Origin: a phage
DNA: 64,000 bases
Sequence record: NC_129898.1
Direction: 5' to 3' (one strand)
In this document: piece by piece, positions 1 to 41,030 of the stretch
Layout of the letters: each line of letters starts with the position of its first letter
Position numbering within the stretch: position 1 is the stretch's first letter
The notes under the pieces: model-generated
The model's database searches: none
Told to the model about the DNA's origin: nothing
The model's input: only the letters and a program-made list of their open reading frames with translations
Made by a program: the position numbers and the translations under genes

Positions 1-27
1 GTAAAAAGAGGGGCCCAAGCCCCTCTC
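1..27 (-). terminator. intrinsic terminator-like hairpin
   Basis: Stem AGAGGGG (7-13) / CCCCTCT (20-26); on the minus strand the hairpin is followed by a T-run (complement of 1-6); lies 3' of minus-strand ORF 35..340. Confidence 0.5.
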
Positions 28-34
28 TTTGTCA

Positions 35-340
35 TTATTCTACAGAGCGTTTGAACAGAATGTCTGCCTCGGACATGTGTTCAACCTCTTCTTCGATTTT
101 AGCTCGACGTTTTTCAGCCTCATAGCGAATATCGAACTCGGTAGCCACTAGAGATTTGATGAATTTAGGAGAATACAGATGATCCTGCTTCTCAACAAGA
201 ATGATATCCTTGATGGCATCTTTCAGATCTTTAATCTGAAGCTGGAGTTCCACCAGTTCTTCGATTGTTTTGCGAAGGCGATCACGTTCTGCAGTGTCAG
301 AAGGAAGAGAGGTGAACAGTTCAACTTTAGATTTAGCCAT
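35..340 (-). CDS. hypothetical protein (charged, coiled-coil-like)
   Basis: 101-aa ORF in co-oriented dense gene array; no recognisable motif. Confidence 0.5.
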   Translation of the reverse strand: MAKSKVELFTSLPSDTAERDRLRKTIEELVELQLQIKDLKDAIKDIILVEKQDHLYSPKFIKSLVATEFDIRYEAEKRRAKIEEEVEHMSEADILFKRSVE

Positions 341-368
341 AGTAAGAGTCTCCTTATGTTGTTTTAAA

Positions 369-686
369 TTAACGTTCTACAAAAATACCGTTCAGTTCAA
401 TAACCAGGAATTTCTGGTCTTCACTATCGTCACGAGCCAGCACCTCGCAGACGTAGCGGTCATCTCCGTCATCATCACAGTCAAATACAAGGCTGAGGAC
501 TTTATCATGATAAATCTTCGACACTACTGCCTCGTAAGTATTGCCGATTGTGAATCCAAGATAATCCCCGATGCATTTGACAACAACATGGTCGCCAGCA
601 TTTAAGTCAATCTTCGTCATTACTGTGCTCCTTGGGTGATAATATGGTATGTAAAACTTTAACCAGAGATGTGAATAACGCCCCAA
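369..686 (-). CDS. hypothetical protein
   Basis: 105-aa ORF, co-oriented array. Confidence 0.5.
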   Translation of the reverse strand: MGRYSHLWLKFYIPYYHPRSTVMTKIDLNAGDHVVVKCIGDYLGFTIGNTYEAVVSKIYHDKVLSLVFDCDDDGDDRYVCEVLARDDSEDQKFLVIELNGIFVER

Positions 687-775
687 AACACACAGATAGC
701 GCTAAAACGGATAAGGCCATCATTAAAGCTTCAGTAAAATCAGTCCTTCCTCACCTCTTGTTAGTAACTATACTA

Positions 776-1039
776 TCATTTATCTTCGCCGTCAAGAACT
801 TTTTTAAATCTCTCAGGAATATCTCCTGTTCTTAGATAGCTCATGACCTCCCAAGGTTTCCACTTGAACTTCTTGCACAGTAAGGCAGCCGAGATCGTCT
901 CGTTGCGAAAAGAAAGGATATTAATATCCCACTCTGAGAACCCCAATTTCCGAAGAGTGGCTATAGAAATCCTCACAGCAACCCAACAAGAGAGGCACGC
1001 AACAAACGCCACTGCCACAACCCACATCAGGATGTTCAT
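776..1039 (-). CDS. hypothetical small membrane protein
   Basis: 87-aa ORF with N-terminal hydrophobic helix ILMWVVAVAFVACLSCWVAV. Confidence 0.45.
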   Translation of the reverse strand: MNILMWVVAVAFVACLSCWVAVRISIATLRKLGFSEWDINILSFRNETISAALLCKKFKWKPWEVMSYLRTGDIPERFKKVLDGEDK

Positions 1040-1128
1040 ACAGCCCCCTTAATGAAATACAAGGCATAGTGTTAAGGTTGCTACCCAGCAAATAATTAAC
1101 AGTGCCGTTGCAACCTTGGCAAGATTTA

Positions 1129-1416
1129 TCATAGTGTCTCTAAAATTTCATACCCTTCGGGTCGGAAAACAAGCCACTCAGGTGCTCCATTTGGTCGATA
1201 CGCTTTATACAGAACAACCTGATCTCGGCACATGCACATGGCTACATAGTTTTCATCAACACCTGCCTCCTGCATTGCATCTTCTTCTCCGGCAACAGCC
1301 TTGCTTACAACTTCCTTGGTAGGCAGGTGGGCGATCAGCTCGTCACCATCGTTAATTCCAAAATGACTGAGTTCTCCATTGGTATCTTTAATCTTGATCT
1401 TAACCAAATCTTTCAT
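1129..1416 (-). CDS. hypothetical protein (MK-I/V-K... small protein family)
   Basis: 95-aa ORF; start overlaps upstream stop; acidic C-terminus EGYEILETL. Confidence 0.5.
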   Translation of the reverse strand: MKDLVKIKIKDTNGELSHFGINDGDELIAHLPTKEVVSKAVAGEEDAMQEAGVDENYVAMCMCRDQVVLYKAYRPNGAPEWLVFRPEGYEILETL

Positions 1417-1745
1417 TAGTCTTCCTCCAGGTTCAAAGGTCCTAAGATTTCATATGCTAGATTAGAAGTTACCAGAGGGTCTTCTGCATCTTTAGTATTA
1501 TACCATCCGTGAATAACCAGAGTCCCACTTTGCTTCATGTCTAACTGGAACTGTTCTGCCGTTTCCTCATCCATCTCCAAGATCTCCATGAGGTATTTGA
1601 TGTTAGGAAGGTATGCAGCTGTTACAGTCCCCTCTACCAGGCCTTCAGGCCAACCTACATCCGGATGACAAGTAGGGACCAGAGAGGTCAGCTTGATAGT
1701 GTATGCTTTTTCTGCACGAGCCTTCAGTAACGGATCAATTTTCAT
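1416..1745 (-). CDS. hypothetical protein
   Basis: 109-aa ORF; stop/start coupled to neighbours. Confidence 0.5.
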   Translation of the reverse strand: MKIDPLLKARAEKAYTIKLTSLVPTCHPDVGWPEGLVEGTVTAAYLPNIKYLMEILEMDEETAEQFQLDMKQSGTLVIHGWYNTKDAEDPLVTSNLAYEILGPLNLEED

Positions 1746-2095
1746 TATTCTTCCTCCTCTTCGGTGCCTGCTTCCAGTAGTAAGTTAAGAACATCTTCAG
1801 CAGAAGGTTCGTAGAACTCTTGGCCTTCGTTGTCGATGATGCGATAGTCATCACCCCGAATAATCAGAGGATCGTCATCAAAACCTTCAAGACCTTTAAC
1901 AACGACAACACGGTCGATTGCCATCATTGTAAGAACTTTATCGACATCTTCCTCTGCTACACCATACTGCAGCAGAATGTCTTTGGTAGGAGGGACAGCA
2001 TCCACCACAACACCGTTACCAAAACCTTCCGGAAGTTTAGCTAAAATATCTTCCGGAACCACATTCATATCAAAACCTGTGATCTCTACTTTCAT
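1745..2095 (-). CDS. hypothetical protein (MKV-family, poly-E C-terminus)
   Basis: 116-aa ORF starting MKVEITGF, ending EEEEE. Confidence 0.5.
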   Translation of the reverse strand: MKVEITGFDMNVVPEDILAKLPEGFGNGVVVDAVPPTKDILLQYGVAEEDVDKVLTMMAIDRVVVVKGLEGFDDDPLIIRGDDYRIIDNEGQEFYEPSAEDVLNLLLEAGTEEEEE

Positions 2096-2356
2096 TTACA
2101 GAACCTCTTCGTCAACTACTTCATAAAAATGGCTTGGGATTGCAATGGCGTTCTCGCCTTCACCTAAGAACACTGTCCCACTAACGATTAACATTAGAAG
2201 AACGTCTGCGATACCTTCCTCGGGGACGTTGCCAAAACCTTTAATCAGCTCGTAGGTTGGAAGATTTACCTCTAAGATGTCACCATCTTTGGAGCGGAAA
2301 TCAACACCATCCTGAATCTCTGCCGTTTCAAGGTTTTTCAATTTAATCTTCATCAA
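2096..2356 (-). CDS. hypothetical protein (MK-I/V-K family)
   Basis: 86-aa ORF, MMKIKLKNLE..., C-terminal VVDEEVL. Confidence 0.5.
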   Translation of the reverse strand: MMKIKLKNLETAEIQDGVDFRSKDGDILEVNLPTYELIKGFGNVPEEGIADVLLMLIVSGTVFLGEGENAIAIPSHFYEVVDEEVL

Positions 2357-2432
2357 TCAGTCTCCTGTCTTGTTAAGATGAAGGTATTATTGCACACAGG
2401 GTTGGTGTTGTCAACACCTGTGTGGAATAAAA

Positions 2433-2828
2433 TTACTGAAACAGTGCAGATAAATTACCTTCTGGTGGGAACTTATCTGCCAAGAACGGAGTCAGAACAG
2501 TGGCCTTCTGAAGATCTGGAGTCCACTCGTTGTTCAGAACATCCCAGTAGTACGCAATGTTGCTGTGTGGGTGCCGCATTACGAACTTTTTCCCTTCGTA
2601 GTCAGTTGAAACCTCTACAGAAGAAATAACAACAGAATCTTCAAGAGTTTCTTCATAGAAAGATCCACCCTCGAATTTCCAACGAGATGCAAGAGCTCCT
2701 GCCTTAAACGCTGCAGATAACGGACTGTCGGCAAGAACATACATTTCTTGCACTCTGTCGCTACGATCTTTGCTTCTTACGTTGTATACAGTATCTGAGC
2801 TATACTCAACACGGTATAGACTTACCAT
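2433..2828 (-). CDS. hypothetical protein, paralog of 4644..5042
   Basis: 131 aa; shares H-P-x-S-x-(6)-YW-(5)-W-T-P motif with 4644..5042. Confidence 0.55.
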   Translation of the reverse strand: MVSLYRVEYSSDTVYNVRSKDRSDRVQEMYVLADSPLSAAFKAGALASRWKFEGGSFYEETLEDSVVISSVEVSTDYEGKKFVMRHPHSNIAYYWDVLNNEWTPDLQKATVLTPFLADKFPPEGNLSALFQ

Positions 2829-3187
2829 TACCGCACCTCCTCAATAACTTCCACATCTGAACCTACCACAAATGCAAAAGGGCAGGTTTCATGAAAGACA
2901 TCCGGATCGCCGCCAAGCTTGCTAACTATTTCTCCACCACTAATAAACACAAGCTCACCGATATTCATCAGATTGCTGAAATAGTATCCATAATGATTAA
3001 AGAATGCAGCAGGGTCAGGCAGACTGGTAGCCTCAAGCTCTACATCGGTTGAGATTACTTTCTTATCATACCCTCTGGCCTTTTGAGATGCAAGATCTGC
3101 AGAATCCTCAGGCGACCGGAGATGCACAGGAATTGTTTCACCAATAAAGCGTACTTTCATATTCTCACCCAACAACCATAGCTTCAA
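2828..3187 (-). CDS. hypothetical protein (VEIVE-tail family)
   Basis: 119 aa; contains MKVRFIGE and C-terminal DVEVIEEVR. Confidence 0.5.
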   Translation of the reverse strand: MKLWLLGENMKVRFIGETIPVHLRSPEDSADLASQKARGYDKKVISTDVELEATSLPDPAAFFNHYGYYFSNLMNIGELVFISGGEIVSKLGGDPDVFHETCPFAFVVGSDVEVIEEVR

Positions 3188-3428
3188 AAGGGGTCATAAA
3201 CGAATAAACAGCATTATCATCTGCTTCAGGAAATGCCCCCAAAGACTTCATGTCTGAGCCCTTGACAAATACAAGGTTCTGATCAAAAGCTTCTTGTGGA
3301 TCAATCCGATACATATTTCGTAGGGTATCACTTACCTCCTCATCAAGAGGTGAGTATGCTGTGCACGTTTTTCCGATCAAGCTTTGAGAATCAGGATATC
3401 CACCTGAAGTTTTAAAATAAACAATCAT
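3165..3428 (-). CDS. hypothetical protein
   Basis: 87-aa ORF, co-oriented. Confidence 0.45.
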   Translation of the reverse strand: MIVYFKTSGGYPDSQSLIGKTCTAYSPLDEEVSDTLRNMYRIDPQEAFDQNLVFVKGSDMKSLGAFPEADDNAVYSFMTPFEAMVVG

Positions 3429-3523
3429 ATAGTATCACCTCTAGTAAGAGATTGGGATTCCTTTCCCACAAATAATTACAAACTTTTCTTTTTATTGAGA
3501 GAAGTATGCTAATCCAAGCAGGA

Positions 3524-3793
3524 TTACTCTTCTACAATCTCATACACATCAGGAGTTACAATCAACTCTTCTCCGTTACCCGGTGCAACAAACACCACCA
3601 AGCCTTCAGGTGTGTGCTTTTTAGCCATCTCGATAACATCTTCTCGCAGAGCTGGCTCCATCAGATCAAAGCCTTCACCCAAGGCATCACGAACTACCTT
3701 CATGTAGTCCACTGGTTGTGCTTCAACGATCATGCCTTCAACCAGTCCGCAGTTTTTGTCTTCCAGCTCAGTTTTGAATAATTTAATTTTCAT
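3524..3793 (-). CDS. hypothetical protein (MK-I/V-K family)
   Basis: 89 aa; MKIKLFKTE..., C-terminal DVYEIVEE. Confidence 0.5.
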   Translation of the reverse strand: MKIKLFKTELEDKNCGLVEGMIVEAQPVDYMKVVRDALGEGFDLMEPALREDVIEMAKKHTPEGLVVFVAPGNGEELIVTPDVYEIVEE

Positions 3794-3930
3794 TTAGAGG
3801 TCTCCTCAATTATTTGATATTAATAGCCGTAACCTAACACATTAACTACAACTGCGATTGCAAACATAATTTCAAAGCATGCAATCTCTACATTTGGGAC
3901 TAATTTCTTAATCACGCCCATTGTAGCACC

Positions 3931-4248
3931 TCATTCTCCAAAGTAAATCTTTACTTTGCCTTTCCCTTTACCTTTCTTTCCACCGCATTTAGCCAACTGA
4001 CGTGCTGCAACATCTACCATACGGTCAGTTGCCTCGTAAGCGTCACTGCCTTTAGCTTTGGCAATAACTTCTTTTCCGGAAGTGTCAAAAATGAACGCCA
4101 TGACTTCCTGGTGATCATTTTCAACTTTTACACTCACACGTGCATAGTTGGCAGAGGGGTGCAAACGCTCCAGCTTAGACATTTTGTGGGAAATGAAAGA
4201 CACCATACCTTCAGTGATTTCTACGTTGCCAGTGATTTCAATTTGCAT
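3931..4248 (-). CDS. hpf: ribosome hibernation promoting factor / YfiA-RaiA family homolog
   Basis: N-terminal MQIEITGNVEITEG matches the HPF/S30EA signature (E. coli HPF begins MQLNITGNNVEITEA); KLE, VKVE and RQLxK elements conserved; 105 aa. Confidence 0.8.
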   Translation of the reverse strand: MQIEITGNVEITEGMVSFISHKMSKLERLHPSANYARVSVKVENDHQEVMAFIFDTSGKEVIAKAKGSDAYEATDRMVDVAARQLAKCGGKKGKGKGKVKIYFGE

Positions 4249-4335
4249 AACGTGCTCCTTTTAAGGAAGAGAGAATAACAACCATCTCTCTTTGAAAACA
4301 ATAATACTATAGCTGAAGCGTTGTGTCAACAGTTT

Positions 4336-4626
4336 TTACAACTTATTATCGATAGTATCTAAAATATCTACAGCAAGATCTGCCATTTTTCGAACATACT
4401 CTGCAAACTCAACAGGATCCTTGATCAAAGAATTCACAGGGTCGTACCCTAGAGCGTTCAAAATGGCTGCAGCATCTACAACCTTCTCATCATTTGCGAA
4501 GATCTCTCCGTCAAACTTGTGGGTCCATTTTGAGTCAATCTTGGCAGAGCATGGTTGGTCAATGCTTGTTACACCATCGTCTTTAAACTCTCCTGCGTTA
4601 TCAATATTCAGAACTAAATCCATCAT
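4336..4626 (-). CDS. hypothetical protein
   Basis: 96-aa ORF. Confidence 0.5.
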   Translation of the reverse strand: MMDLVLNIDNAGEFKDDGVTSIDQPCSAKIDSKWTHKFDGEIFANDEKVVDAAAILNALGYDPVNSLIKDPVEFAEYVRKMADLAVDILDTIDNKL

Positions 4627-4643
4627 AGTGGCACCTCACTGTT

Positions 4644-5042
4644 TCAGTCTAGCTTTTCTTCAACAACCCCGTAGCTCGGGGCAGAGTCAAGAGCTTTTTG
4701 GTTTAAAAGTGGTGTAGCAGAATCTGCAAACGGTGTCCAAGTTTTTGTTCTGGCATTCCAGTAATGCTTCACTCTGGAATCTGGATGCACTATAACAAAA
4801 ACTTTTTCACTTGTCAACACATTAATTTCTTCTACACCCTTGCTGATAATTTCTCCGTCATAGCCCCCAGTCTGGTATCCTTCGTACCAGGTTCTTGCAT
4901 AGGCATAGCCAGCCTGCCAGCATGCAGCCTCCTCCGAGGTGGAGACTACGTAGAAGTCTTTCTCAAATTCTGGGATACGTCCTTGCTTTACGCTCCAAGC
5001 TCCGCGAATTTTCATTGTTACTTTGAAAAGCTTGTTCTTCAT
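4644..5042 (-). CDS. hypothetical protein, paralog of 2433..2828
   Basis: 132 aa; HPDSRVKHYWNARTKTWTP motif shared with 2433..2828. Confidence 0.55.
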   Translation of the reverse strand: MKNKLFKVTMKIRGAWSVKQGRIPEFEKDFYVVSTSEEAACWQAGYAYARTWYEGYQTGGYDGEIISKGVEEINVLTSEKVFVIVHPDSRVKHYWNARTKTWTPFADSATPLLNQKALDSAPSYGVVEEKLD

Positions 5043-5043
5043 A

Positions 5044-5298
5044 CTACCGCTCTACAATCTCTACGTCTGTTCCTACACCGAAGGCATAGTAATGTTCTTC
5101 CCCAAAGTAATACTTGGGGACACCAGCTTTGATCAGGTCTAACCCGCGAATAAATACCACACCGTGTGATACAGTGGAATGCTTCTGACGCACAGGATCG
5201 TTGTCAGGCAACCATTCAAAGTACACCGCAGGTACAACCTTCCCTTTAAGAAAGGATTGCCCCAAGTAGACGTTAGAATCAAGAATTTTGACCTTCAT
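5044..5298 (-). CDS. hypothetical protein (MKVK / VEIVE family)
   Basis: 84 aa; MKVKILDSNVYLGQ..., C-terminal DVEIVER. Confidence 0.55.
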   Translation of the reverse strand: MKVKILDSNVYLGQSFLKGKVVPAVYFEWLPDNDPVRQKHSTVSHGVVFIRGLDLIKAGVPKYYFGEEHYYAFGVGTDVEIVER

Positions 5299-5512
5299 GA
5301 TCGTCCTCCACTATCTCCACATCCTCCCCTAGGGCAAAGTTGTAGGTCCACTGACTGTCAAAGCAGTCCTGAGATGCTCCAGCGGCAATAAGATCTGCAC
5401 CCTTTATTTTTAAAAGGTCAGGATAATCTTCGTTAGGGACAGCGGTAAACACTTTACCCACTAAAGGCTCCTGACCAATATAGAAGTTTGAATCTAAAAC
5501 TTTAACTTTCAT
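5279..5512 (-). CDS. hypothetical protein (MKVK / VEIVE family)
   Basis: 77 aa; MKVKVLDSNFYIGQ..., EDVEIVEDD; clear paralog of 5044..5298. Confidence 0.55.
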   Translation of the reverse strand: MKVKVLDSNFYIGQEPLVGKVFTAVPNEDYPDLLKIKGADLIAAGASQDCFDSQWTYNFALGEDVEIVEDDHEGQNS

Positions 5513-5796
5513 CAGCGGTCTCCATCGGGCGGTTGTGGAACGTAAACACTGTTACGAATCTCGTCAGCAGTGTAGTAACAAGTTTTCCCCTCTCTGTCCC
5601 TGGCAGCAATGTATTCAGCTATACCAATAAGTGCCATAGCCTTGGTGGCGTATCTCTTAAGCTCGTTAGCTCCCCAGCAAAATCTCTGCCAAAACGGTAT
5701 GAAACCGAATAGGTACACCTTCTGTTTCACTATCCAATAAGTTCCTTTACAGATCACTTTAAACTCTGCAGCACTGTTACTGACACCATTGCTCAT
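5512..5796 (-). CDS. hypothetical protein
   Basis: 94-aa ORF. Confidence 0.5.
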   Translation of the reverse strand: MSNGVSNSAAEFKVICKGTYWIVKQKVYLFGFIPFWQRFCWGANELKRYATKAMALIGIAEYIAARDREGKTCYYTADEIRNSVYVPQPPDGDR

Positions 5797-5808
5797 TATC
5801 TTCTCCTT

Positions 5809-6093
5809 TTATTTTTCTGGGTTTGGCAGATATTGCACATTGGCAGGAGGAACACCGGATAGCTCCCAAACAACCATAGTGCTGTACCCTGGCACACTTC
5901 TAACATTTAAAAGAGTAGGAGCACCAACACATTTAAACTTCCTTTTCCCAAATCCGTTCTCCATCATAACCCAGTATCCTGTATCCTGATCACCTGGAAT
6001 TTGTGTTCCATCATCGTCCACCCAGCGGACGGTCCATTTCGATACAGCAACGGCTCGGTATTTAAACTTTTTAAACCACTCAAACAGTTTCAT
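5809..6093 (-). CDS. hypothetical protein
   Basis: 94-aa ORF. Confidence 0.5.
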   Translation of the reverse strand: MKLFEWFKKFKYRAVAVSKWTVRWVDDDGTQIPGDQDTGYWVMMENGFGKRKFKCVGAPTLLNVRSVPGYSTMVVWELSGVPPANVQYLPNPEK

Positions 6094-6096
6094 AAT

Positions 6097-6186
6097 TCAG
6101 CCTCGCATAGCCATAATAACTATAAACAGACAAATAATGAATCCGAATGCCACGCCACCCATAAACGTTAATATTGATGCGACCAT
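6097..6186 (-). CDS. small hydrophobic peptide (29 aa, single predicted TM helix)
   Basis: ATG at 6186-6184 preceded by GAGGA; translation MVASILTFMGGVAFGFIICLFIVIMAMRG; below the 60-aa ORF cutoff. Confidence 0.3.
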   Translation of the reverse strand: MVASILTFMGGVAFGFIICLFIVIMAMRG

Positions 6187-6188
6187 AA

Positions 6189-6374
6189 TCAATCATCCTC
6201 GTTTGGCAGCTCTTCCATTTTGACATACCGGAAAGTGTTGCCGTAATAGTTGATCCATGACATCAGCTCGCTTTCTTGCTCTTCCTCTGGGATTGACTCT
6301 CGTATGCTGACAAGTTTTAAGAAAATCCAATCACAATCTGCACCCATCCTACCAGACAGGCAATAGTGCTTCAT
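6189..6374 (-). CDS. hypothetical protein
   Basis: 61-aa ORF. Confidence 0.4.
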   Translation of the reverse strand: MKHYCLSGRMGADCDWIFLKLVSIRESIPEEEQESELMSWINYYGNTFRYVKMEELPNEDD

Positions 6375-6392
6375 AGAACCCTCCCGACCGGT

Positions 6393-6587
6393 TTAGAATA
6401 TTGCTTCTTCCATTGCACCTGAGAGCAATAAAGAGGTAATATGGCTAACATTCATCTCAGACTCTACTTCCTCCCCTTTGAAAGGTTCGCGGCAGAATAG
6501 GACTGTTTCAGGACTTTTACTTCGAACAATATAATACAAATCATTCAAAGTGTTGTAGTAATAAGTGTTAAAACGTAAGTTTTTCAT
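6393..6587 (-). CDS. hypothetical protein
   Basis: 64-aa ORF. Confidence 0.4.
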   Translation of the reverse strand: MKNLRFNTYYYNTLNDLYYIVRSKSPETVLFCREPFKGEEVESEMNVSHITSLLLSGAMEEAIF

Positions 6588-6871
6588 TTTCTAGTCCCCT
6601 TCTTAGATTTTTGTGAAGAAACGCTTTCTGCAATACGAGACAGGCGTTCTTCTGAAGCTTTACCTACCCCAGGTTTCTTGAGCGGGTTATCTTTATGACC
6701 GCAATCCAATTGGATGCTAGATACCTCCCCAACCTTGTAAGTCAATTCTAGCAAAAGGTTGTCGTCCTTGTCAAATGTTTTTACGATAAATTTTTTATCG
6801 TTCTCCTGAACTTCATATCTGGTACCTGCAGTATACAGCATGGTGCCATCAGCATAGGATATCCAGATCAT
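6584..6871 (-). CDS. hypothetical protein
   Basis: 95-aa ORF; overlapping stop/start with neighbours. Confidence 0.5.
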   Translation of the reverse strand: MIWISYADGTMLYTAGTRYEVQENDKKFIVKTFDKDDNLLLELTYKVGEVSSIQLDCGHKDNPLKKPGVGKASEERLSRIAESVSSQKSKKGTRK

Positions 6872-7215
6872 TGAGCCTCCTTCTGCTGCAACAGCATTAA
6901 CTCTTTGTTGGAAATCTTTACTGCTGTCTTTATTGTTCCATCTTCACGGAACCACGACCAGAATTCTACAGTGTCACCACTATCAAGCAAGGCATGACCA
7001 TGGTAAAAATCCTTGTCCTTAGACAGTTTCTCATCTATATCTGCATCGACACATTCGTGATCCATAGCATTTTGCCTGAATGCATCGGTTATGCCAATGC
7101 ATGCCTTGCTCTCAAGACTGGCATATCCGATATCTTTTAATTCAGTTTCCCAAACCCAGAACCCTATAAAAGCCACAACAGCTACCCACATTAATATCGA
7201 TTTAATCTTTGACAT
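6868..7215 (-). CDS. hypothetical signal-anchored / secreted protein
   Basis: 115 aa; N-terminal hydrophobic segment ILMWVAVVAFIGFWVW. Confidence 0.5.
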   Translation of the reverse strand: MSKIKSILMWVAVVAFIGFWVWETELKDIGYASLESKACIGITDAFRQNAMDHECVDADIDEKLSKDKDFYHGHALLDSGDTVEFWSWFREDGTIKTAVKISNKELMLLQQKEAQ

Positions 7216-7275
7216 TCTCTCTACCTCTTTCTTAATTTGTTTAATTATGGCACATCCTTTGTGCCTTGTTGCACA

Positions 7276-7746
7276 CTACTTAGACAACAGTTCAAAATAG
7301 TGCAAAATTAACAGAAGTTGAATTACGCCTAGCACAACGGCAAGTATGTTAATCTTAGAATCAAAAAACTTCTTAACTTTTACTCTAAAAGGTTCCTTAA
7401 TGTCCTTTACGATCCTATCTATAGATGACCTCATATCTCTGATTACCATCCTGAACATTAAAGACGGATGCTCCCCCATCTCTGTAACGGAATCGAAAAC
7501 ATACTCTCTTCGGTCATAAGGGCCGCCAGCTCTGCGTATTAACCTCTCCACAGAGACCTCGAACGTCACACCTGTAACGTAATCATCTATAACAAGTCGT
7601 GACGGGTCTTTACCTTTACTATCAAGAGGTATCAAAGTTATCTTTCCAGATTTTGTTAAAATTTCTCCTTTTTCAAGCAAGGTGTACCAATGCTCTCTAC
7701 CAAGATTGTTGAGGCACGTTTTTACATATTTAACAAACATCGTCAC
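7276..7746 (-). CDS. hypothetical protein with C-terminal TM anchor
   Basis: 156 aa; C-terminal ILAVVLGVIQLLLILHYF. Confidence 0.5.
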   Translation of the reverse strand: MTMFVKYVKTCLNNLGREHWYTLLEKGEILTKSGKITLIPLDSKGKDPSRLVIDDYVTGVTFEVSVERLIRRAGGPYDRREYVFDSVTEMGEHPSLMFRMVIRDMRSSIDRIVKDIKEPFRVKVKKFFDSKINILAVVLGVIQLLLILHYFELLSK

Positions 7747-7928
7747 CCCTTATCGCACGTCTGATATAACCATTCTATGAAATCTTGATACCACTCTCCC
7801 TCTGAGCGCTCCGTAGGCCAATAATCTTCCCCCTCTCTTGCATTAAAATCTGAGTATTCGACTTTCCACTCCTTTACCAGCTCGTGGAGAAGGTTTTCAG
7901 CCTGTTCTAAGGATTTATTTTTTGTCAT
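7743..7928 (-). CDS. hypothetical protein
   Basis: Track ORF 7743..7946 begins at TTG; first ATG at 7928 (MTKNKSLEQ) with AAGGGG RBS. Confidence 0.45.
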   Translation of the reverse strand: MTKNKSLEQAENLLHELVKEWKVEYSDFNAREGEDYWPTERSEGEWYQDFIEWLYQTCDKG

Positions 7929-8034
7929 TACTGTCCCCTTTTTCAAGATAATTATACATCAGTGCCGCGCCACCCAAAATGGCTACTAGCAGTAATACTC
8001 CAGAGAGCATTTCAATAAACATGGCTTGAAACAT
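7915..8034 (-). CDS. small hydrophobic peptide (39 aa)
   Basis: MFQAMFIEMLSGVLLLVAILGGAALMYNYLEKGDSNDKK; overlaps start of 7743..7928; below ORF cutoff. Confidence 0.25.
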   Translation of the reverse strand: MFQAMFIEMLSGVLLLVAILGGAALMYNYLEKGDSNDKK

Positions 8035-8148
8035 TAGAAGGCCCCCTCTAATTTCACGCACCATTTTAAATACATACTCTTTTCCCATGAAGATGCTAAA
8101 CTAAGGTCTGTATAGAATGCAATCTCCCTAAGAACAGCATAAACAGTT

Positions 8149-8385
8149 TCAGGCACTGTTACCATTCTTATCTGCCTCCTTCATTTTCCTGACGGTTTTA
8201 CAGTGATCTACCAAGCACATAACCACAATGAAGAGAACAACAGGCCAAAAAGGTGCGGCAGTGATTATAGTTATAAAGTCGTCAAACTTAATTTTTCTAC
8301 AAGATATGATGCAAAGAGTTGCTAAAACAACCATTGTCAGAAAGGTCAATGCGCAATACCAAACCAGCACAGTGTCTATAGTCAT
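8149..8385 (-). CDS. hypothetical membrane protein
   Basis: 78 aa; two hydrophobic helices. Confidence 0.45.
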   Translation of the reverse strand: MTIDTVLVWYCALTFLTMVVLATLCIISCRKIKFDDFITIITAAPFWPVVLFIVVMCLVDHCKTVRKMKEADKNGNSA

Positions 8386-8386
8386 A

Positions 8387-8914
8387 CTATATCTCCTGGT
8401 TCAAACTGTTAAGAAAGGATACCCTGTCTTCGCTATTTTTCTCTGTGATGTACCCTCCAAACATGGAAAGAATCACATGCTTCAAGTAATCTTTTTCTGG
8501 GTCGCTTAGATGATTGCGTGGCTTTATTTCCACATCATGGTAGTCATACAATCCACAATCATGATACCCCCAGTATCGACACACCTCAATACTGATCGGG
8601 AGTTTTTTGTCACACGAAACTTTCCAACGGGTTACGTTGTTACCAGGAGATAAATCCTCTCCCACCTTCACGAATGACAAATCATAATTCATAAACTTTT
8701 CGTACAGTTTAAGTACAAAACCTTCTACCTGTGGAGAAACACCAGCCACTAGCTGGGCGTATCTATATTTACTTTCAATAATTTTTCGGCGCTTTGCTGT
8801 AAGGTTTATTGCAGCAATTTGACTCTCCGAGTATCTCCAAGGCTTATATATAAATGCTTTCGGGTCTTTATCGCCATAAAAATCTTTCCAATCAACTAGC
8901 AGCATACCTGTCAC
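8387..8914 (-). CDS. hypothetical protein
   Basis: 175-aa ORF. Confidence 0.5.
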   Translation of the reverse strand: MTGMLLVDWKDFYGDKDPKAFIYKPWRYSESQIAAINLTAKRRKIIESKYRYAQLVAGVSPQVEGFVLKLYEKFMNYDLSFVKVGEDLSPGNNVTRWKVSCDKKLPISIEVCRYWGYHDCGLYDYHDVEIKPRNHLSDPEKDYLKHVILSMFGGYITEKNSEDRVSFLNSLNQEI

Positions 8915-9144
8915 TCCTCCACAACTTCAAGGCCTTTGCCGCCTCGTTCTGGTAGATTACTTAAAGACAGGTAATACGTATAGTCAGGAGAGATCCTACC
9001 AGACTCTGCACCTGCAGATAGTAAATCTTTTCCCTTAACCATGACAACATTATCGTTTGCAGATAGTCGTTTTGCTTCCACAATTTTACCAACGCAGTCA
9101 ACCAAGGAAGGGTACCCTAAATCTGTAAGAAATTTAACTTTCAT
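8911..9144 (-). CDS. hypothetical protein (MKVK family)
   Basis: 77 aa; MKVKFLTDLGYPSL..., C-terminal LEVVEE. Confidence 0.5.
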   Translation of the reverse strand: MKVKFLTDLGYPSLVDCVGKIVEAKRLSANDNVVMVKGKDLLSAGAESGRISPDYTYYLSLSNLPERGGKGLEVVEE

Positions 9145-9183
9145 GCTACCTCCTACTTCTACCGTCCCTAGTAAGATAAATTA

Positions 9184-9582
9184 TTACTGAACAAAGCGCG
9201 GAGCTGGGAAGGATAACTCTTCTAAAGAGAAGATTTCATTCCCCACAATCCATGTTGCAGGATCATCCGGGTTGACTGGATAGATGATCATCACCTCGTC
9301 AGTGTTACATACCCGCTTTTTACCTGTGGAGTCATCAGCAACCAGCATGCGCGGTTCTTCAGAAATGCACAGGTAGCCTCCTCGGCCCACTGTTCCTTCC
9401 ACAGGGTCTTGTCCTTTGATCACGATGATTATCTTCTCTCCTGAGGCGATATTACCTTGCACACTCACCGTTTGACCAACCTTGGATGTGCCAATCTTAG
9501 TGACTTCGAACATTACATCCCGAATTACCGTTGCATAATCGCCAGACACTTTCTTACCTTCTTTAGTGATCTCAATCTTCAT
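9184..9582 (-). CDS. hypothetical protein
   Basis: 132 aa, MKIEITKEG... Confidence 0.5.
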   Translation of the reverse strand: MKIEITKEGKKVSGDYATVIRDVMFEVTKIGTSKVGQTVSVQGNIASGEKIIIVIKGQDPVEGTVGRGGYLCISEEPRMLVADDSTGKKRVCNTDEVMIIYPVNPDDPATWIVGNEIFSLEELSFPAPRFVQ

Positions 9583-9818
9583 ACACTGGGCTCCTTAAAT
9601 GAATCTATGTAATCAATTAAATCCCAAGCATCCCTATGACCTGTCAGAGGGTATACTTCTTCAAGAGGGATCATAGCAGTAAGTCTATCAAAAACCCAAT
9701 CCGGACGCAACATCTTATGGTGATATTCCCACTCACCTTCTACAGACTTTTTCTGAGTGATCAGAATCTCTGTGTAGTGTTTTGCCTGTCTTGAGTAAAT
9801 TGAAAATGACTTATACAT
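9579..9818 (-). CDS. hypothetical protein
   Basis: 79-aa ORF. Confidence 0.45.
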   Translation of the reverse strand: MYKSFSIYSRQAKHYTEILITQKKSVEGEWEYHHKMLRPDWVFDRLTAMIPLEEVYPLTGHRDAWDLIDYIDSFKEPSV

Positions 9819-9855
9819 AGATGACCCTCCCTCTTGTTGAAAACAAAATACACTA

Positions 9856-10140
9856 CTACCAAGTCACTGTCAAGTAGGCAACCGTGTTATTTTTCTCCGG
9901 AGAGATGCCAACAACATCCACCTGCAGACCTCCTGCCCTCAAATCTCCAACGATGTGTGGAAAGTAGTCTGAGAGGTGTGATGGGAGATTTATCGAAAAT
10001 CCACATCCCAGAAAGCCTGCTAACGCTTTATTTTGTATATCCCCTACAATCGCATCATAAATAGAGTTAAGCTCGTCAGGAAGCGTTACAGGACGTTTTA
10101 GAGCTAACTGGTGCAACTTGTCCTTAGCACTCATTTTCAT
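9856..10140 (-). CDS. hypothetical protein
   Basis: Start moved to ATG at 10140 (MKMSAKDK) forming an ATGA overlap with the methyltransferase stop. Confidence 0.4.
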   Translation of the reverse strand: MKMSAKDKLHQLALKRPVTLPDELNSIYDAIVGDIQNKALAGFLGCGFSINLPSHLSDYFPHIVGDLRAGGLQVDVVGISPEKNNTVAYLTVTW

Positions 10141-10670
10141 TTCAAGTCTGCCTCTGGTGGTGCCAACCACATAAATGGCGGCAAGTCTAGACGGTTTTTC
10201 TTGTCCCATACAAAATATGCATATGCCTGCCCATCCGTTCTACCATTGGATTGGAATGACGGACGCTTAGATATTGTGATCACAGTGGTAGGTGCATTAT
10301 CAAGCCACCATTCAAATCTGGCCTTGCTTTCCAGAAAATTAAGACGCAAAAGCATAATAACTACATCGGCATCTTTCAACGCCTTGTCTACAAACTCACG
10401 AGCCAAGCTGTACGGTGGGTTGGTGATAATACAGTCAACATGGTTGTATTCTGTATTCAGATAGTCAACACCTTCTTGGATTTCTCCCCATGCAGATCCT
10501 AACGGCATACGGGAGTAGAACACACCTGAGGCACTATTCCTGCAAGGCTCTAAGTAAGTCCAGTCTTCTGGGAACGGAATAAGGTCATACAGCCCTTCTG
10601 CACACCACTCCGGTGTCACATACTCATCGTAAGCGTTACGTTGTTCATCAGGTTTTCTAGCACAAGTCAT
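10137..10670 (-). CDS. DNA N6-adenine methyltransferase (NPPY motif)
   Basis: DCIITNPPYSL catalytic motif; 177 aa; no adjacent restriction enzyme. Confidence 0.65.
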   Translation of the reverse strand: MTCARKPDEQRNAYDEYVTPEWCAEGLYDLIPFPEDWTYLEPCRNSASGVFYSRMPLGSAWGEIQEGVDYLNTEYNHVDCIITNPPYSLAREFVDKALKDADVVIMLLRLNFLESKARFEWWLDNAPTTVITISKRPSFQSNGRTDGQAYAYFVWDKKNRLDLPPFMWLAPPEADLK

Positions 10671-10688
10671 GCAAATCTCCAGATCATA

Positions 10689-10710
10689 AAAGCCCTCCGA
10701 AGAGGGCTTT
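10689..10710 (-). terminator. terminator-like hairpin
   Basis: AAAGCCCTC-CGAA-GAGGGCTTT perfect 9-bp stem with tetraloop 3' of 10722..11771; weak U-tract. Confidence 0.4.
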
Positions 10711-10721
10711 AGGATTAATGT

Positions 10722-11771
10722 TTAAGCTTCTTCGACAATTCCTGCGCCCAGGATTTTTTCATTGAGCTCTTTTGCTGTTTTAATAATATTGTCCACCAGA
10801 CGCTTACGAGTCTTATCTTTCACCTGAACTTCTTCTCCGCCGTTCAGGGTGGTTTTCAATTGGGACAAAATGTCCTGAAGCTCTACCACAGAGAATCGCT
10901 GCAGATCTTCCGAGGTAATCTCACCCAGTGCAATCTTAACGGTCTCACCACTCTCCATCTGCAGATTCAGGAACACAGTGTGAACATCACCTTTCATACC
11001 ATTTTCTTTTGCAGACTCAACAGCATGAACCAGCTCGTCCAAAGATGTGCATTGGTGAATCTCTGGCAGGCCTGCTTCGCCTAGCACACCTTCTTCATCA
11101 CTTTTTGCCAAAAGCTTTTTCGGTTTCTGTCCATTCTGAATGCGCTGAATGTTTTCATCGTCCAGAATAATAGCACCAGTTCGAGATGCCAGCTCTTCTC
11201 CATCTAACCACACTTCGCCGCCAGCTGTGATGGATGCGATCTCATCTTCTGTTAGCACTCCACCGTAGTATTTTTCGATCAGGCGTTCAAAACGTTTCTT
11301 CCAGTAGTTGACCTGGGTATTCATGTTCACACCGTTACCATAGGTGCCACCTTGATAATAGTGGAACATAAATTCTGTGTCCGGAGCCACAGTTCGTTCT
11401 TTGCAACCCATCCATAAGATTGTTCCTGCTGAACAGCACATCCCTTCAGCGTGTACAACAACGCTTGCCTGAGACTCGCGGAATGCCTGCAAATACGCCA
11501 TAGCAATGTGAACGCAACCACCAGGGCTGTTAATGATTACACGGATACTTTCTTCTGGCTGAGCCATACGAATCGTCTGTAGACGAGACATATGATCTTG
11601 CAGGTCGTCCAAATCGTCAATATAAAGAACGTGGTCAACAACAGGTGTTGGGTAGCTGTATGTTTCCATAATACCACCCGGCATACCAAACATTTTGTTA
11701 CTCATAGGTTCGAAACCGTTCTGTTTTTCTTTCATGCCGTGTACCATGGTGCTGCGAGGTGTTAAATTCAT
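10722..11771 (-). CDS. ClpP/S14-like serine peptidase with ~150-aa C-terminal extension
   Basis: INSPGGCVHIAMAYL and GMCCSAGT (ClpP-type oxyanion/Ser motifs); acidic, helix-rich C-terminal half. Confidence 0.5.
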   Translation of the reverse strand: MNLTPRSTMVHGMKEKQNGFEPMSNKMFGMPGGIMETYSYPTPVVDHVLYIDDLDDLQDHMSRLQTIRMAQPEESIRVIINSPGGCVHIAMAYLQAFRESQASVVVHAEGMCCSAGTILWMGCKERTVAPDTEFMFHYYQGGTYGNGVNMNTQVNYWKKRFERLIEKYYGGVLTEDEIASITAGGEVWLDGEELASRTGAIILDDENIQRIQNGQKPKKLLAKSDEEGVLGEAGLPEIHQCTSLDELVHAVESAKENGMKGDVHTVFLNLQMESGETVKIALGEITSEDLQRFSVVELQDILSQLKTTLNGGEEVQVKDKTRKRLVDNIIKTAKELNEKILGAGIVEEA

Positions 11772-11831
11772 GAGAAATCCTTAATATTGGAAGTTGAAAG
11801 CTATTTATTTAAACCTGATTCACATTTACCT

Positions 11832-12191
11832 TTATTTAGCAATCACTATAGAATACTTACGATTGTCAGAAGCATCACAGCTCAATGATTGCCAGTCTAC
11901 CACATACCACGTATCATTGTCAACAATTACTTTATCGCCTGTTCTGTAGCAGGTGCTGCTTTCAATAATCCTAGACTCGATAAAGAATCTGTGTCGGCGC
12001 TCACGTAGCAACGCTAAGTTGATTATATTACCACCACTGTCCTTGGTCCACACATTCTTGGATCCTTTATTTGCCAAAATTGTCTCGCCGTTATATACAA
12101 ACAGGCAGTATATTTTATTCAGTCTCTCTTGTATTGTAGCCATACTGTGTCCTTCTCCTTGTTTTGTCCAGTAATAATATCTAAAGCTCAC
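11832..12191 (-). CDS. hypothetical protein
   Basis: 119-aa ORF. Confidence 0.45.
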   Translation of the reverse strand: MSFRYYYWTKQGEGHSMATIQERLNKIYCLFVYNGETILANKGSKNVWTKDSGGNIINLALLRERRHRFFIESRIIESSTCYRTGDKVIVDNDTWYVVDWQSLSCDASDNRKYSIVIAK

Positions 12192-12246
12192 CTGTTTGTC
12201 AACAACTGTTTTAGATATTTAAGGGTGGAATAACCACCCTTCTGTA

Positions 12247-13035
12247 TTACTCGGAAACAGGAGTCCAAATATGATTTGCACGATCCTCAATAAGATTGAG
12301 TGCAATCTGACGGCCTAACCCGGAACGAACGACATCGTCTGGACTATCAAAGCTAATCATTCCAACCTCAGGATCTGGATGACGCGTAAAGAAATCTGTC
12401 ACCCATGCAAGGCCAGATTTACCAGGGATGTCACGTTGGCTGTTATCGCCCATAATTACAAGGGTGGCCTGATCAGAGATCCTTGTGATAATTGACAACA
12501 TTTCTTCAGGATTGGTTTGCTGTGCTTCATCAATAAGGACAAAGCATCGTTCATCAAAACTACGACCACGAATGCTTTCAACCTCACAAATCTCGATACG
12601 GCTGTTCTGACCGTCTCCAAGCATTGCTGCAAAAGCACCTTTGCCAACACGACGACAAATCGTGTCCATCATGCTTCTAAGATAGGGCCACAGTTTCTGC
12701 ATTGCATTTCCAGGTTTAAATCCTGAAGTCTTTCCTGTCTGAACGTAAGGGCGTGCAACAATGATCTTATCAATCTCGTTCTTGCGCAGAAGATCCCCTG
12801 CATATGCAGATGCCATGAATGTCTTACCGGATCCAAACACACCGTTTACAATGATAATCTTACGCGACCCTAGATAATCAAGATACTTTTGCTGCTTTTT
12901 ATTCATTGGTCGGAGAGCTGGAGCGGTGTGCTCTCGTTCGTCAGCAAATTTTTCAGCAGCCTTACGCAGGCGATCAGATTTGCGAGCCTCTCTAGCTTCA
13001 TCACGCATGCGTTTTGTTTCTTTAGCTCGACCCAT
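12247..13035 (-). CDS. phoH: PhoH-like ATPase
   Basis: Walker A GVFGSGKTF and Walker B VLIDEAQ in PhoH-like arrangement; 262 aa. Confidence 0.8.
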   Translation of the reverse strand: MGRAKETKRMRDEAREARKSDRLRKAAEKFADEREHTAPALRPMNKKQQKYLDYLGSRKIIIVNGVFGSGKTFMASAYAGDLLRKNEIDKIIVARPYVQTGKTSGFKPGNAMQKLWPYLRSMMDTICRRVGKGAFAAMLGDGQNSRIEICEVESIRGRSFDERCFVLIDEAQQTNPEEMLSIITRISDQATLVIMGDNSQRDIPGKSGLAWVTDFFTRHPDPEVGMISFDSPDDVVRSGLGRQIALNLIEDRANHIWTPVSE

Positions 13036-13073
13036 GTTGGGACTCCTTTCAGATTGAGATGTGCCAAGTACTT

Positions 13074-13424
13074 TTACTGCAATAGTTTTTCAATAGCCGC
13101 TTCCATGCTGCTTGCAACAGCCTGAACTCGGATATTCATCTCTTCTTGGTGGATCAGCTCCTTAAGCTCTTTAATGGTAAATTCTTTAGAGAAACCTTCT
13201 ACCATAATCTTGTGTAAGGCTTCTTGCGTGTCTACCTGCAAGAACTTTTCCAGTTTGTTGGCAGAGGCTTCTAAATCAGCCCGAATACGAGGGTCATCTG
13301 TGCGATTCAGCATCAGGCGTAAGCCATCAAGATTAGTAGAAATAGCGTCTGCATGTTGAGTAACTAATCGTGGCAAAATGAGATCTACAAACTTATTAGC
13401 CAAATCGATACGTTCTTGTGTCAC
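13074..13424 (-). CDS. hypothetical protein
   Basis: 116-aa ORF (GTG start). Confidence 0.5.
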   Translation of the reverse strand: MTQERIDLANKFVDLILPRLVTQHADAISTNLDGLRLMLNRTDDPRIRADLEASANKLEKFLQVDTQEALHKIMVEGFSKEFTIKELKELIHQEEMNIRVQAVASSMEAAIEKLLQ

Positions 13425-13596
13425 TGTTGCACCCCCTCTTCATCCTCATGATGTTTCTTTTCACGCTTGTGTTTTTTCTTAAGCTCAAGCGCAATCTCTT
13501 TTTTGTACGCCTTCTTCAAGGCCTTTTTAGCCATTTGGCACCTCCTCTGCTTTCATTACGCTAATTATAACCAACTTAACAAGACTTTGTCAACAA

Positions 13597-14070
13597 TTAG
13601 TCAACCTGAACCCAACCGCCTGCTACCTTTTTAAACATTCTTTGGTTATCACTGCCTCGGAATGGTTTCTTGGTTGGTAAATCTTTTACATACTTTCCAT
13701 CAATGACGATATCAGCCAGTTTAAGAACATCACTAGAGATATGCTCAAATGTGAACCCAGTATACACAAGAATAGTTTTCTTGTCACCAAACTTTTCCTT
13801 AATTCTCCTCATAAGGTTGATAATATCTGGCTCATTATAAGTAGCCAAAGGCTCTCCACCAAGTAAAGAAATACCGCATACAGATTCATTGTCTAAATCC
13901 AACAAAATTTTCTGCAAATCTTCTTCGGTGAACTCTCTTCCTTTATCTTTTGACCAAAATGCTTGATTAAAGCAACTGGGACAAGCGTGTGGGCACCCAG
14001 ATACCCACAAAGCTGTCCTAATACCTGGCCCCTCGGTGTAAGATATCTCTGTATACCCGACAATATTCAT
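13597..14070 (-). CDS. nrdG: anaerobic ribonucleotide reductase activating protein (radical SAM)
   Basis: CPHACPSC radical-SAM cysteine motif; start set to ATG at 14070 (MNIVGYTE) overlapping the upstream stop. Confidence 0.8.
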   Translation of the reverse strand: MNIVGYTEISYTEGPGIRTALWVSGCPHACPSCFNQAFWSKDKGREFTEEDLQKILLDLDNESVCGISLLGGEPLATYNEPDIINLMRRIKEKFGDKKTILVYTGFTFEHISSDVLKLADIVIDGKYVKDLPTKKPFRGSDNQRMFKKVAGGWVQVD

Positions 14071-14183
14071 ACATACTCCGCATCGCATTTAGGACAATGC
14101 CAAATAAAATCGTCCAGTGCCTTACACCAACGAAGATTGCAATGACAACCACACTTGCAAATTTTATAAATACCTGTAGACAT
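14067..14183 (-). CDS. small Cys-rich (zinc-ribbon-like) peptide, 38 aa
   Basis: GGAGG RBS 7 nt upstream of ATG 14183; MSTGIYKICKCGCHCNLRWCKALDDFIWHCPKCDAEYV; stop overlaps nrdG start (ATGA). Confidence 0.35.
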   Translation of the reverse strand: MSTGIYKICKCGCHCNLRWCKALDDFIWHCPKCDAEYV

Positions 14184-14246
14184 GCTGCACCTCCTAGTTT
14201 ACTGTGTGACAACAATATGCAACATCCTTGTGACTTTTGTCAAGTA

Positions 14247-40045: not shown

Positions 40046-40117
40046 GCCCTGTTAGCTTAGTGGATAAAGCAGCGGCCTTCTAAGCCGTTGACACTGGTTC
40101 GAGTCCAGTACGGGGTG
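40046..40117 (+). tRNA. tRNA-Arg (anticodon TCT)
   Basis: Acceptor GCCCTGT/ACGGGGT, D-stem GCTT/AAGC, anticodon loop CTTCTAA, T-loop TTCGAGT, CCA encoded. Confidence 0.8.
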
Positions 40118-40250
40118 CCAAGTTCTTTTTAATGTAGCTTACTTTAGCAGAGTAAATCTTCGGCAAGTGGCGGTAACCACTTTACCGATACCTCATAGTT
40201 AGTGGTGAGAACACTAGCTATTTTAAAAAGAATTTAAATATTAGTATTTA

Positions 40251-40335
40251 GGTGAGTTAATTCCGTAGGGGTAGCGGGGCAGACTGTAAATCTGTTATCA
40301 TTGCGATTCGGGTGGTTCGACTCCATCACTCACCA
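40251..40335 (+). tRNA. tRNA-Tyr (anticodon GTA), long variable arm
   Basis: Acceptor GGTGAGT/ACTCACC, anticodon loop CTGTAAA, T-loop TTCGACT, discriminator A, CCA encoded. Confidence 0.75.
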
Positions 40336-40452
40336 CCAAATTTATATTTTTAAATGCATAAATCATACAGATAATGGCATTGATATTTATCGTCGTTTAT
40401 ACTAGTCACTAACTGCTCGAAAATCAGTGTCATTATCAGTATTGTTTATAAA

Positions 40453-40540
40453 AGAGGGTAGGGAGCAATGGTGCTCAAGCGGTCTTGAAAACCGTCCCGT
40501 TGAGGATGACTCGATGATGGTTCGATTCCATTATCCTCTG
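40453..40540 (+). tRNA. tRNA-Ser (anticodon TGA), long variable arm
   Basis: Acceptor AGAGGGT/ATCCTCT, anticodon stem GCGGT/ACCGT with loop CTTGAAA, T-loop TTCGATT, discriminator G. Confidence 0.7.
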
Positions 40541-40640
40541 CCATATTGTTGACCTTGTAATTAAGCGAAAGCCGGAAGCAGAACCGGATTATCAAATGTT
40601 ACAGTCGTCATCGCCGACTAGCCACATGGTCAACATATTG

Positions 40641-40737: not shown

Positions 40738-40743
40738 ACCTTT

Positions 40744-40816: not shown

Positions 40817-40820
40817 ACCA

Positions 40821-40892: not shown

Positions 40893-40907
40893 ACCAAATT
40901 ATAAATA

Positions 40908-40981: not shown

Positions 40982-41030
40982 CCACCTTTAGTTATACTTT
41001 AAACATATACACACAAAAGGAACCTTTAAA

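Follow-up and report, generated by a model that had tools for sequence, protein, structure and literature searches.

The gene at 3931..4248 on the minus strand of the window (the whole stretch of phage DNA analysed, 64,000 nucleotides of sequence record NC_129898.1) encodes a member of the HPF/YfiA family of ribosome hibernation factors. This assignment is secure, and comparison with cellular homologues suggests that the protein still has its RNA-binding face, though in remodelled form. Both the gene and what it encodes were already known, so that the finding is correct but is no discovery. What is added here is the isolation of the lineage, the loss of three family-conserved basic residues, the gain of β4 lysines and of a disordered Lys/Gly tail, and a re-reading of a published negative result. 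Ribosome hibernation is a main route of translation silencing in starved or stressed bacteria and possibly in some defence responses, a switch over which a phage with an HPF-family protein of its own may have control. Does the protein lock, protect or unlock ribosomes? The answer bears on the infection of non-growing hosts, the more so as the genus in which the gene is fixed is a large one, with coliphages from gut and wastewater that are used in phage-therapy collections.

The hpf open reading frame runs from an ATG start to a TGA stop and specifies 105 amino acids, MQIEITGNVEITEGMVSFISHKMSKLERLHPSANYARVSVKVENDHQEVMAFIFDTSGKEVIAKAKGSDAYEATDRMVDVAARQLAKCGGKKGKGKGKVKIYFGE. A sequence-only reading of this DNA, which gave no strand, had proposed an HPF/RaiA homologue from a set of sequence elements, all of which are there: MQIEITGNVEITEG is residues 1-14, KLE 25-27, VKVE 40-43 and RQLAK 83-87, and the Lys/Gly-rich C-terminal tail that it described is likewise real, GGKKGKGKGKVK being residues 89-100. 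The gene divides as follows:

3982..4248, minus strand: HPF/YfiA-family core domain, residues 1-89, β1-α1-β2-β3-β4-α2 (from Pfam, AlphaFold2, Foldseek and dN/dS)
3934..3981, minus strand: Lys/Gly-rich C-terminal tail, residues 90-105 (GKKGKGKGKVKIYFGE), predicted to be disordered (from AlphaFold2 pLDDT and charge)
3931..3933, minus strand: TGA stop codon (from reading of the ORF)

Profile scores and predicted fold both bear out the proposed homology. Both family models score above their cut-offs: Pfam PF02482 (Ribosomal_S30AE, 'sigma 54 modulation protein / S30EA') gives 48.2 bits (E=1.9e-12) over residues 3-88, where the gathering cut-off is 23.7 bits, and NCBIfam TIGR00741 (HPF/YfiA family) gives 46.7 bits, its cut-off being 40.9 bits. 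In PHROGs the protein falls in phrog_12469 (231 bits), a family to which no function is attached, with a weak match to the S30EA family phrog_8990. The best sequence matches in the PDB are chains of E. coli HPF (2rql, 4v8h, 6h4n), with E about 1e-11 (best 7e-12) and residues 1-89 aligned on 1-89. The AlphaFold2 model has a mean pLDDT of 82.4 and a pTM of 0.73, with pLDDT 85-94 over residues 1-80, and its predicted elements are β1(2-7)-α1(13-29)-β2(33-42)-β3(47-55)-β4(60-67)-α2(70-89); residues 90-105 have pLDDT <50 and are predicted to be disordered. When the model was searched against the PDB with Foldseek, the first 33 places were all taken by HPF, YfiA or pY chains with TM up to 0.93, the best match being V. 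cholerae HPF 4hei (TM 0.90, rmsd 1.1 Å); superposition on the V. cholerae and E. coli HPF structures gave rmsd values of 1.1-1.5 Å. Weak Foldseek matches to Staufen and DCL4 also appeared, the fold being dsRBD-like.

Placing the protein within the family is another matter. The short HPF equivalog PRK10470 (NCBIfam NF007780) gives 55 bits, below its cut-off of 125, and the RaiA/YfiA equivalog PRK10324 (NCBIfam NF007654) only 18.6 bits, below 158; equivalence to either E. coli paralogue, HPF or YfiA, is thus not secure. The RefSeq label 'ribosome-associated translation inhibitor RaiA' is a family-level name only, because of this RaiA score and because the tail is basic (+5), not long and acidic as in RaiA. 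The close match to the family claimed by the sequence-only reading holds in that the resemblance is far above chance, but closeness was somewhat overstated, as both equivalogs fail and 40/94 residues (about 42%) are identical to E. coli HPF. The two E. coli paralogues themselves share 37/95.

Comparison with known systems sharpens this picture. Like E. coli HPF (YhbH), the phage protein is a single domain of about 100 residues with a basic C-terminus and, in the predicted model, the same β-α-β-β-β-α fold (rmsd 1.2-1.5 Å to 2rql, 4v8h and 6h4n). The two also share the N-terminal pattern MQ[LI]xITGN(N)VEITE and the equivalents of K23, K26, E60, R83, Q84, L85, K87 and K91. They differ in that the equivalents of R17, K80, K89, H55, T53 and D51 are replaced in the phage protein, which has extra lysines at 59, 64 and 66 and a Lys/Gly-rich tail 10 residues longer; in that the phage gene has a phage σ70 promoter whereas E. 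coli hpf lies in the rpoN operon; and in that expression of the phage protein was without effect on 100S ribosomes (PMC6375957). With E. coli YfiA/RaiA (protein Y; 1n3g, 4v8i) it shares, on prediction, the fold, the 30S site of the family, a disordered extension past α2, and R83, K87 and K91; besides the equivalog score, YfiA differs in keeping K80 and in having an acidic tail. The long HPFs of Firmicutes and Actinobacteria (S. aureus, B. subtilis, L. innocua; 5nd8, 5njt, 8uu4) have an N-terminal domain with the same fold and binding site. A Pfam search of the 105 residues gave no second domain, however, and the long-HPF C-terminal dimerisation domain is missing, its place being taken by the disordered tail, so the phage protein cannot dimerise ribosomes by the long-HPF mechanism.

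The window comes from an rV5-like Vequintavirus: the 2.2 kb around hpf are 94-98% identical to 115 rV5-like genomes of the genus Vequintavirus, and 117 phage records encode the HPF at more than 90% identity. A search with the window's RNR α-subunit gene retrieved 120 records at at least 90% identity plus 33 relatives from Klebsiella, Proteus and Raoultella phages at 60-80%; in the Klebsiella, Proteus and Raoultella phages of the collection no hpf was found, even at E≤10. When E. coli HPF was the query, 129 of the 50,697 records of the phage collection gave matches, 117 of them belonging to the Vequintavirus hpf clade. By these counts hpf is a near-universal, genus-specific accessory gene, fixed in Vequintavirus. 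With the window protein as query the only 'non-Vequintavirus' match was in 'Salmonella' record AGRM01000002.1, where an hpf 39.8% identical looked like a distant phage homologue; we rejected it, since the record is a misfiled 691-kb chromosomal contig of Salmonella enterica subsp. houtenae and the gene is that of the host. A separate oddity concerns 18-19 'Campylobacter phage' records (MG0656xx, UNVERIFIED, host C. jejuni), which carry the classification Vequintavirus and share >94% identity with E. coli members of the genus; either the host assignment looks wrong or these look like contaminating coliphages.

The annotation history of the gene is tangled. It corresponds to ORF144 of rV5 (GenBank DQ832317), annotated 'sigma 54 modulation factor' with promoter P144, whose product (ABI79209) is 98% identical to that of the window; the annotation dates from 2008, and a published test followed in 2019. 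Other names in use are HPF, RaiA and 'ribosome hibernation factor'. ABI79209 figures in the catalogue of virus-encoded ribosomal proteins by Mizuno et al. (2019; PMC6375957), and Mathieu et al. (2020) again noted hpf as an auxiliary gene of rV5-like phages (PMC6969025); a literature search for Vequintavirus hpf found no transcriptome or functional study beyond these two. Several labels can be set aside. About seven records call hpf 'ATP-dependent protease La type I', which is a mis-annotation. The label 'sigma 54 modulation factor (x2)' suggests a second hpf copy, which we rejected because in APCEc02 the label was shifted to an adjoining ORF and then propagated by similarity:

3524..3793, minus strand: adjoining 89-aa ORF, mislabelled 'sigma 54 modulation factor', with no Pfam match

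The shifted label is found in the GenBank records of APCEc02, A6-1, magaca, nomo and naswa, and in APCEc02 and A6-1 the true hpf is left as 'hypothetical'. As for σ54 modulation itself, the name is a legacy of the location of E. coli hpf in the rpoN operon; nothing here bears on σ54, and this reading was rejected.

Relatives of the phage protein are few. An exhaustive phmmer search across 1.84 billion cluster representatives turned up no more than 26 matches at E<1e-3, of which one was close (P0004, 103 aa, 65% identity); the next-best single-domain matches were cellular HPF-like proteins at 27-44% identity and E 3.7e-7 or weaker. A word-indexed protein search found only five close relatives, and a search with the phage-clade alignment only two IMG/VR loci, both close. 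The P0004 gene occupies the syntenic place in a divergent Vequintavirus-like phage, in the same small-gene array and with a TTGACA box upstream. The phage lineage is old and isolated, and hpf is no recent capture. Among eight orthologues every informative pair had a dN/dS (Nei-Gojobori, codons 1-88) within 0.04-0.20, dS reaching 0.35; the gene is under strong purifying selection. The representative library also held a 1160-aa protein (P0006) in which residues 35-81 of the phage HPF matched nine times (E=1.4e-8); judging by its sequence, it seems to consist of partial S30AE-like units in tandem.

How much of the ribosome-binding surface has survived? In Gram-negative HPF (E. coli numbering) K26 and Q29 contact 16S nucleotides 1496-1498, T53 and H62 touch m2G966, H55 and E60 touch the C-terminus of uS9, and α2 carries a 'strictly conserved' basic track of K80, R83, K87, K89 and K91; β4 and α2 are ribosome-binding elements of both HPF and YfiA (bioRxiv 10.1101/2025.10.07.680626). 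The corresponding residues of the phage protein are:

E. coli K26: phage K25, kept
E. coli Q29: phage R28, changed to a basic residue
E. coli T53: phage F52, changed
E. coli H55: phage F54/D55, changed
E. coli E60: phage E60, kept
E. coli H62: phage I62, changed
E. coli K80: phage V80 (T in P0004), lost
E. coli R83: phage R83, kept
E. coli K87: phage K87, kept
E. coli K89: phage G89 (S in P0004), lost
E. coli K91: phage K91, kept

The α2 track thus keeps R83, K87 and K91 and loses K80 and K89. Measured against 21 cellular homologues, three basic columns are lost in the window protein and in P0004 alike, namely those of E. coli R17 (V16 in the phage), K80 and K89, which are 71-81% basic in the cellular set (K80 81%, K89 76%); the acidic equivalent of residue 51, from a column that is 86% acidic, is lost in the phage clade as well. 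Against the same set the phage clade has gained K59, K64 and K66 in β4, all three invariant within the clade, plus R37, R76 and K92. It is this combination of losses and gains that suggests remodelling.

The tail adds to the positive charge. Residues 89-105 have a net charge of +5, whereas the tail of E. coli HPF carries +2 and that of YfiA is acidic (about -3, from the PDB sequence); the P0004 tail, SKSKGIDKRTAKWDY, is different but still basic. Two isolates have a frameshift in the A/G-rich run from which the GKKGKGKGK tail is translated (APCEc02, +1 G, 101 aa; Murica, -1 A, 99 aa), whereas all other hpf records align over their full length; the extreme C-terminus may be dispensable, or these may be homopolymer sequencing errors. 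In YfiA the tail continues past the end of α2 in the direction of the RMF site (bioRxiv 10.1101/2025.10.07.680626). Because the phage tail leaves α2 at the same point, interference with RMF is conceivable by analogy.

The one published experiment on the protein seems at first sight to speak against ribosome binding. Mizuno et al. (2019) expressed rV5 HPF from pBAD24 in E. coli NM522 with arabinose induction and found its peptides in the crude extract and none in purified 70S/100S ribosomes; in cells at OD600 = 1 the 70S/100S profile was unchanged and no effect on 100S could be discerned (PMC6375957). The ribosomes had been prepared from such cells by 20 h of pelleting through a sucrose cushion with 500 mM NH4Cl, and the authors themselves named salt dissociation and growth phase as possible causes of the negative result; they also proposed that viral HPF might compete with its cellular homologues and so prevent the formation of ribosome dimers (PMC6375957). 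In the same study bS21 of a pelagiphage and bL12 of a Salmonella phage, likewise phage-borne homologues of host translation proteins and auxiliary genes, were shown to enter ribosomes, whereas rV5 HPF was not (PMC6375957). That set also includes the HPF of Cronobacter phage GAP32, a separate and more divergent acquisition (PMC6375957), which tblastn with the window HPF as query did not pick up.

The mass spectrometry tables of that paper (PMC6375957, Supplementary Data 2-5) change the weight of the result. Host HPF and RMF are missing from the salt-washed ribosomes of 3/3 strains, and the crude extract of the phage-HPF strain contains RMF (score 217), HPF (210) and YfiA (188). Because the assay recovered neither host HPF nor RMF, its negative outcome for the phage protein is uninformative. 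Failure to bind ribosomes is what the sequence-only reading had named as speaking against its proposal; nominally this has been reported, yet for the reason just given the report decides nothing. A further detail may point the other way. Host YfiA was detected in the salt-washed ribosomes of both other strains, by 1 peptide for bS21 and by 2 peptides (6 spectra) for bL12, and is absent among the 71 proteins of ribosomes from the phage-HPF strain, though present in its crude extract (PMC6375957). This is a hint, from n=1 and non-quantitative data on samples of 54, 80 and 71 proteins, that the phage HPF displaces YfiA, and the pattern hints at what competition for a shared site would give.

Expression signals lie upstream of hpf, and one further small ORF follows the gene closely:

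4301..4329, minus strand: σ70-type promoter of hpf, TTGACA-17 nt-TATTAT, 11/12 matches, equal to rV5 P144 (from promoter scan and rV5 annotation)
4268..4291, minus strand: short 5' UTR hairpin AGAGAGA...TCTCTCT between promoter and Shine-Dalgarno, weakly supported (from fold energy and covariation)
4255..4260, minus strand: strong Shine-Dalgarno AAGGAG, 6 nt upstream of the ATG (read from the sequence)
3820..3921, minus strand: 33-aa hydrophobic ORF, homologue of rV5 ORF145, MGVIKKLVPNVEIACFEIMFAIAVVVNVLGYGY, starting 9 nt after the hpf stop, with no Pfam match

The TTGACA...TAT[CT]AT arrangement is conserved in 9/9 of the orthologous Vequintavirus upstream regions inspected, and a promoter scan of 1..15000 of the window gave six sites with at least 11/12 matches, every one of them on the strand that codes for the small-gene array. 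For this region the rV5 genome paper gives 88 mainly small ORFs in transcription unit 82-163, and for the whole genome 33 predicted E. coli-type promoters. With σ70 promoters so near consensus, it is a reasonable inference that hpf is transcribed early by host RNA polymerase. The placement in an early region made by the sequence-only reading thus stands as far as the array and its promoters go, early expression itself being deduced from promoter consensus only. The small ORF downstream, which is missing from the divergent relative L002, is probably co-transcribed with hpf. The hairpin was rejected as a functional element: its energy of -11.3 kcal/mol has no significance (z = -1.4), and covariation is inconsistent, with GAGAGA/TCTCTC in the window against GAGGG/CCCTC in rV5 and mismatches in Murica and A142. 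A search of Rfam in and around hpf gave no family, the raiA motif included.

What might the protein do? We favour a model, whose truth we regard as evenly balanced, in which the phage HPF would occupy the 30S decoding channel of idle ribosomes early in infection in competition with host YfiA and HPF, leaving the ribosomes protected, monomeric and loosely locked. Unmodified host RNA polymerase would transcribe hpf soon after infection, and the core of the protein would dock in the tRNA/mRNA channel of the 30S subunit on vacant ribosomes, the site of host HPF and YfiA. Contacts would be made by the retained K22, K25 and R28 (α1), E60, and R83, K87 and K91 (α2), with additional docking by the lineage-specific, ribosome-facing β4 lysines K59, K64 and K66 and by the flexible Lys/Gly tail. 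Occupation of the site would bring the phage protein into competition with host YfiA/HPF, and the tail, leaving α2 as in YfiA, may hinder RMF-dependent 100S dimerisation. Idle ribosomes, whether freed by decay of host mRNA or hibernating in a starved gut host, would be kept intact; because the contacts of K80, K89 and H55 are lost, locking would be only loose, and the ribosomes would stay available for phage mRNAs with no shutdown. Phage translation would benefit, particularly in nutrient-limited hosts. Against this model, the loss of R17, K80, K89, H55 and the acidic residue 51 in the phage lineages could have weakened or abolished binding.

The same substitutions also suit a second reading, which we hold to be possible though improbable: the protein may be a weakened HPF mimic that works against hibernation. 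It would evict host YfiA/HPF and block RMF and, being itself easily displaced by initiation factors or phage mRNA, would wake dormant ribosomes. Such a mimic would have lost the anchors K80, K89 and H55 and gained the β4 lysines and cationic tail, and its target would be the ribosomes of starved or defence-arrested cells, a proposal that we put forward equally tentatively. If true, it would enable the phage to replicate in stationary-phase gut E. coli. The residual value of the present findings lies in three things: the published negative was no binding test, the binding face is consistently remodelled across the lineage and a cationic tail is added, and the anti-hibernation hypothesis is directly testable.

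A classical hibernation promoter, which with host RMF would form 100S ribosomes and shut off translation for takeover or to pause infection in starved cells, is in our judgement unlikely. Profile and structure searches both match short HPF better than RaiA (55 against 18.6 bits, with 4hei, 2rql and 6h4n at the top), and E60, R83, K87 and K91 are kept, yet the protein fails the HPF equivalog cut-off, and its 16-residue tail is YfiA-like in length, the YfiA tail pointing to the RMF site. A blocker of the A and P sites would moreover stop phage translation too, and such a role is disfavoured because the protein was not toxic and left 100S unchanged. Growth to OD600 = 1 with the induced protein argues against strong silencing of translation in growing cells; the silencing of host ribosomes envisaged by the sequence-only reading is accordingly the least likely of the options it offered, the 70S/100S profile of these cells being unchanged.

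Could ribosome binding have been lost altogether? The fold might now serve a different partner, RNA or protein, or the gene might be of marginal benefit, and we rate this below the classical role. It would accord with the absence of the protein from ribosomes in the sole experiment (PMC6375957), with the missing equivalents of R17, K80, K89, H55 and D/E51, with the isolation of the lineage (the 26 matches among 1.84 billion representatives) and with the dsRBD-like fold and its weak Staufen and DCL4 matches. The experiment missed host HPF and RMF too, however, and is uninformative; strong purifying selection and genus-wide retention exclude a decaying gene; and most α1 and α2 contact residues are kept, the binding face being more basic, not less.

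We consider more doubtful still a shield against defence, in which the filled A/P channel of vacant ribosomes would guard 16S rRNA from ribosome-directed toxins, nucleases or abortive-infection effectors, or would counter hibernation that defence sets off, for instance through RMF induction: ribosomes are guarded by HPF-family proteins against nucleolytic decay, as by S. aureus HPF against RNase R (PMC8406268), DRT2 defence reportedly raises RMF (review PMC13434031), and hpf lies in an early small-gene array typical of counter-defence loci, but the idea is entirely inferential and no link to defence systems was found, a PADLOC search giving no match and Pfam none on the seven ORFs neighbouring hpf.

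Two further features of the window deserve record. The small-gene array contains paralogues, all on the minus strand: a pair at 2433..2828 and 4644..5042 encoding ~131-aa proteins (28% identity, E=4e-10), and a set at 2828..3187, 5044..5298, 5279..5512 and 8911..9144 encoding 77-119-aa proteins of a 'MKVK...VEIVE' type (up to 45% identity, E=6e-17); Pfam gave no match on those at 2433..2828, 2828..3187 and 4644..5042. On the plus strand a six-gene tRNA cluster at 40046..40984 comprises Arg-tct, Ser-tga, Thr-tgt, Met-cat and Pro-tgg together with a 99-nt ARAGORN call at 40642..40740 that has a four-base anticodon (atcc).
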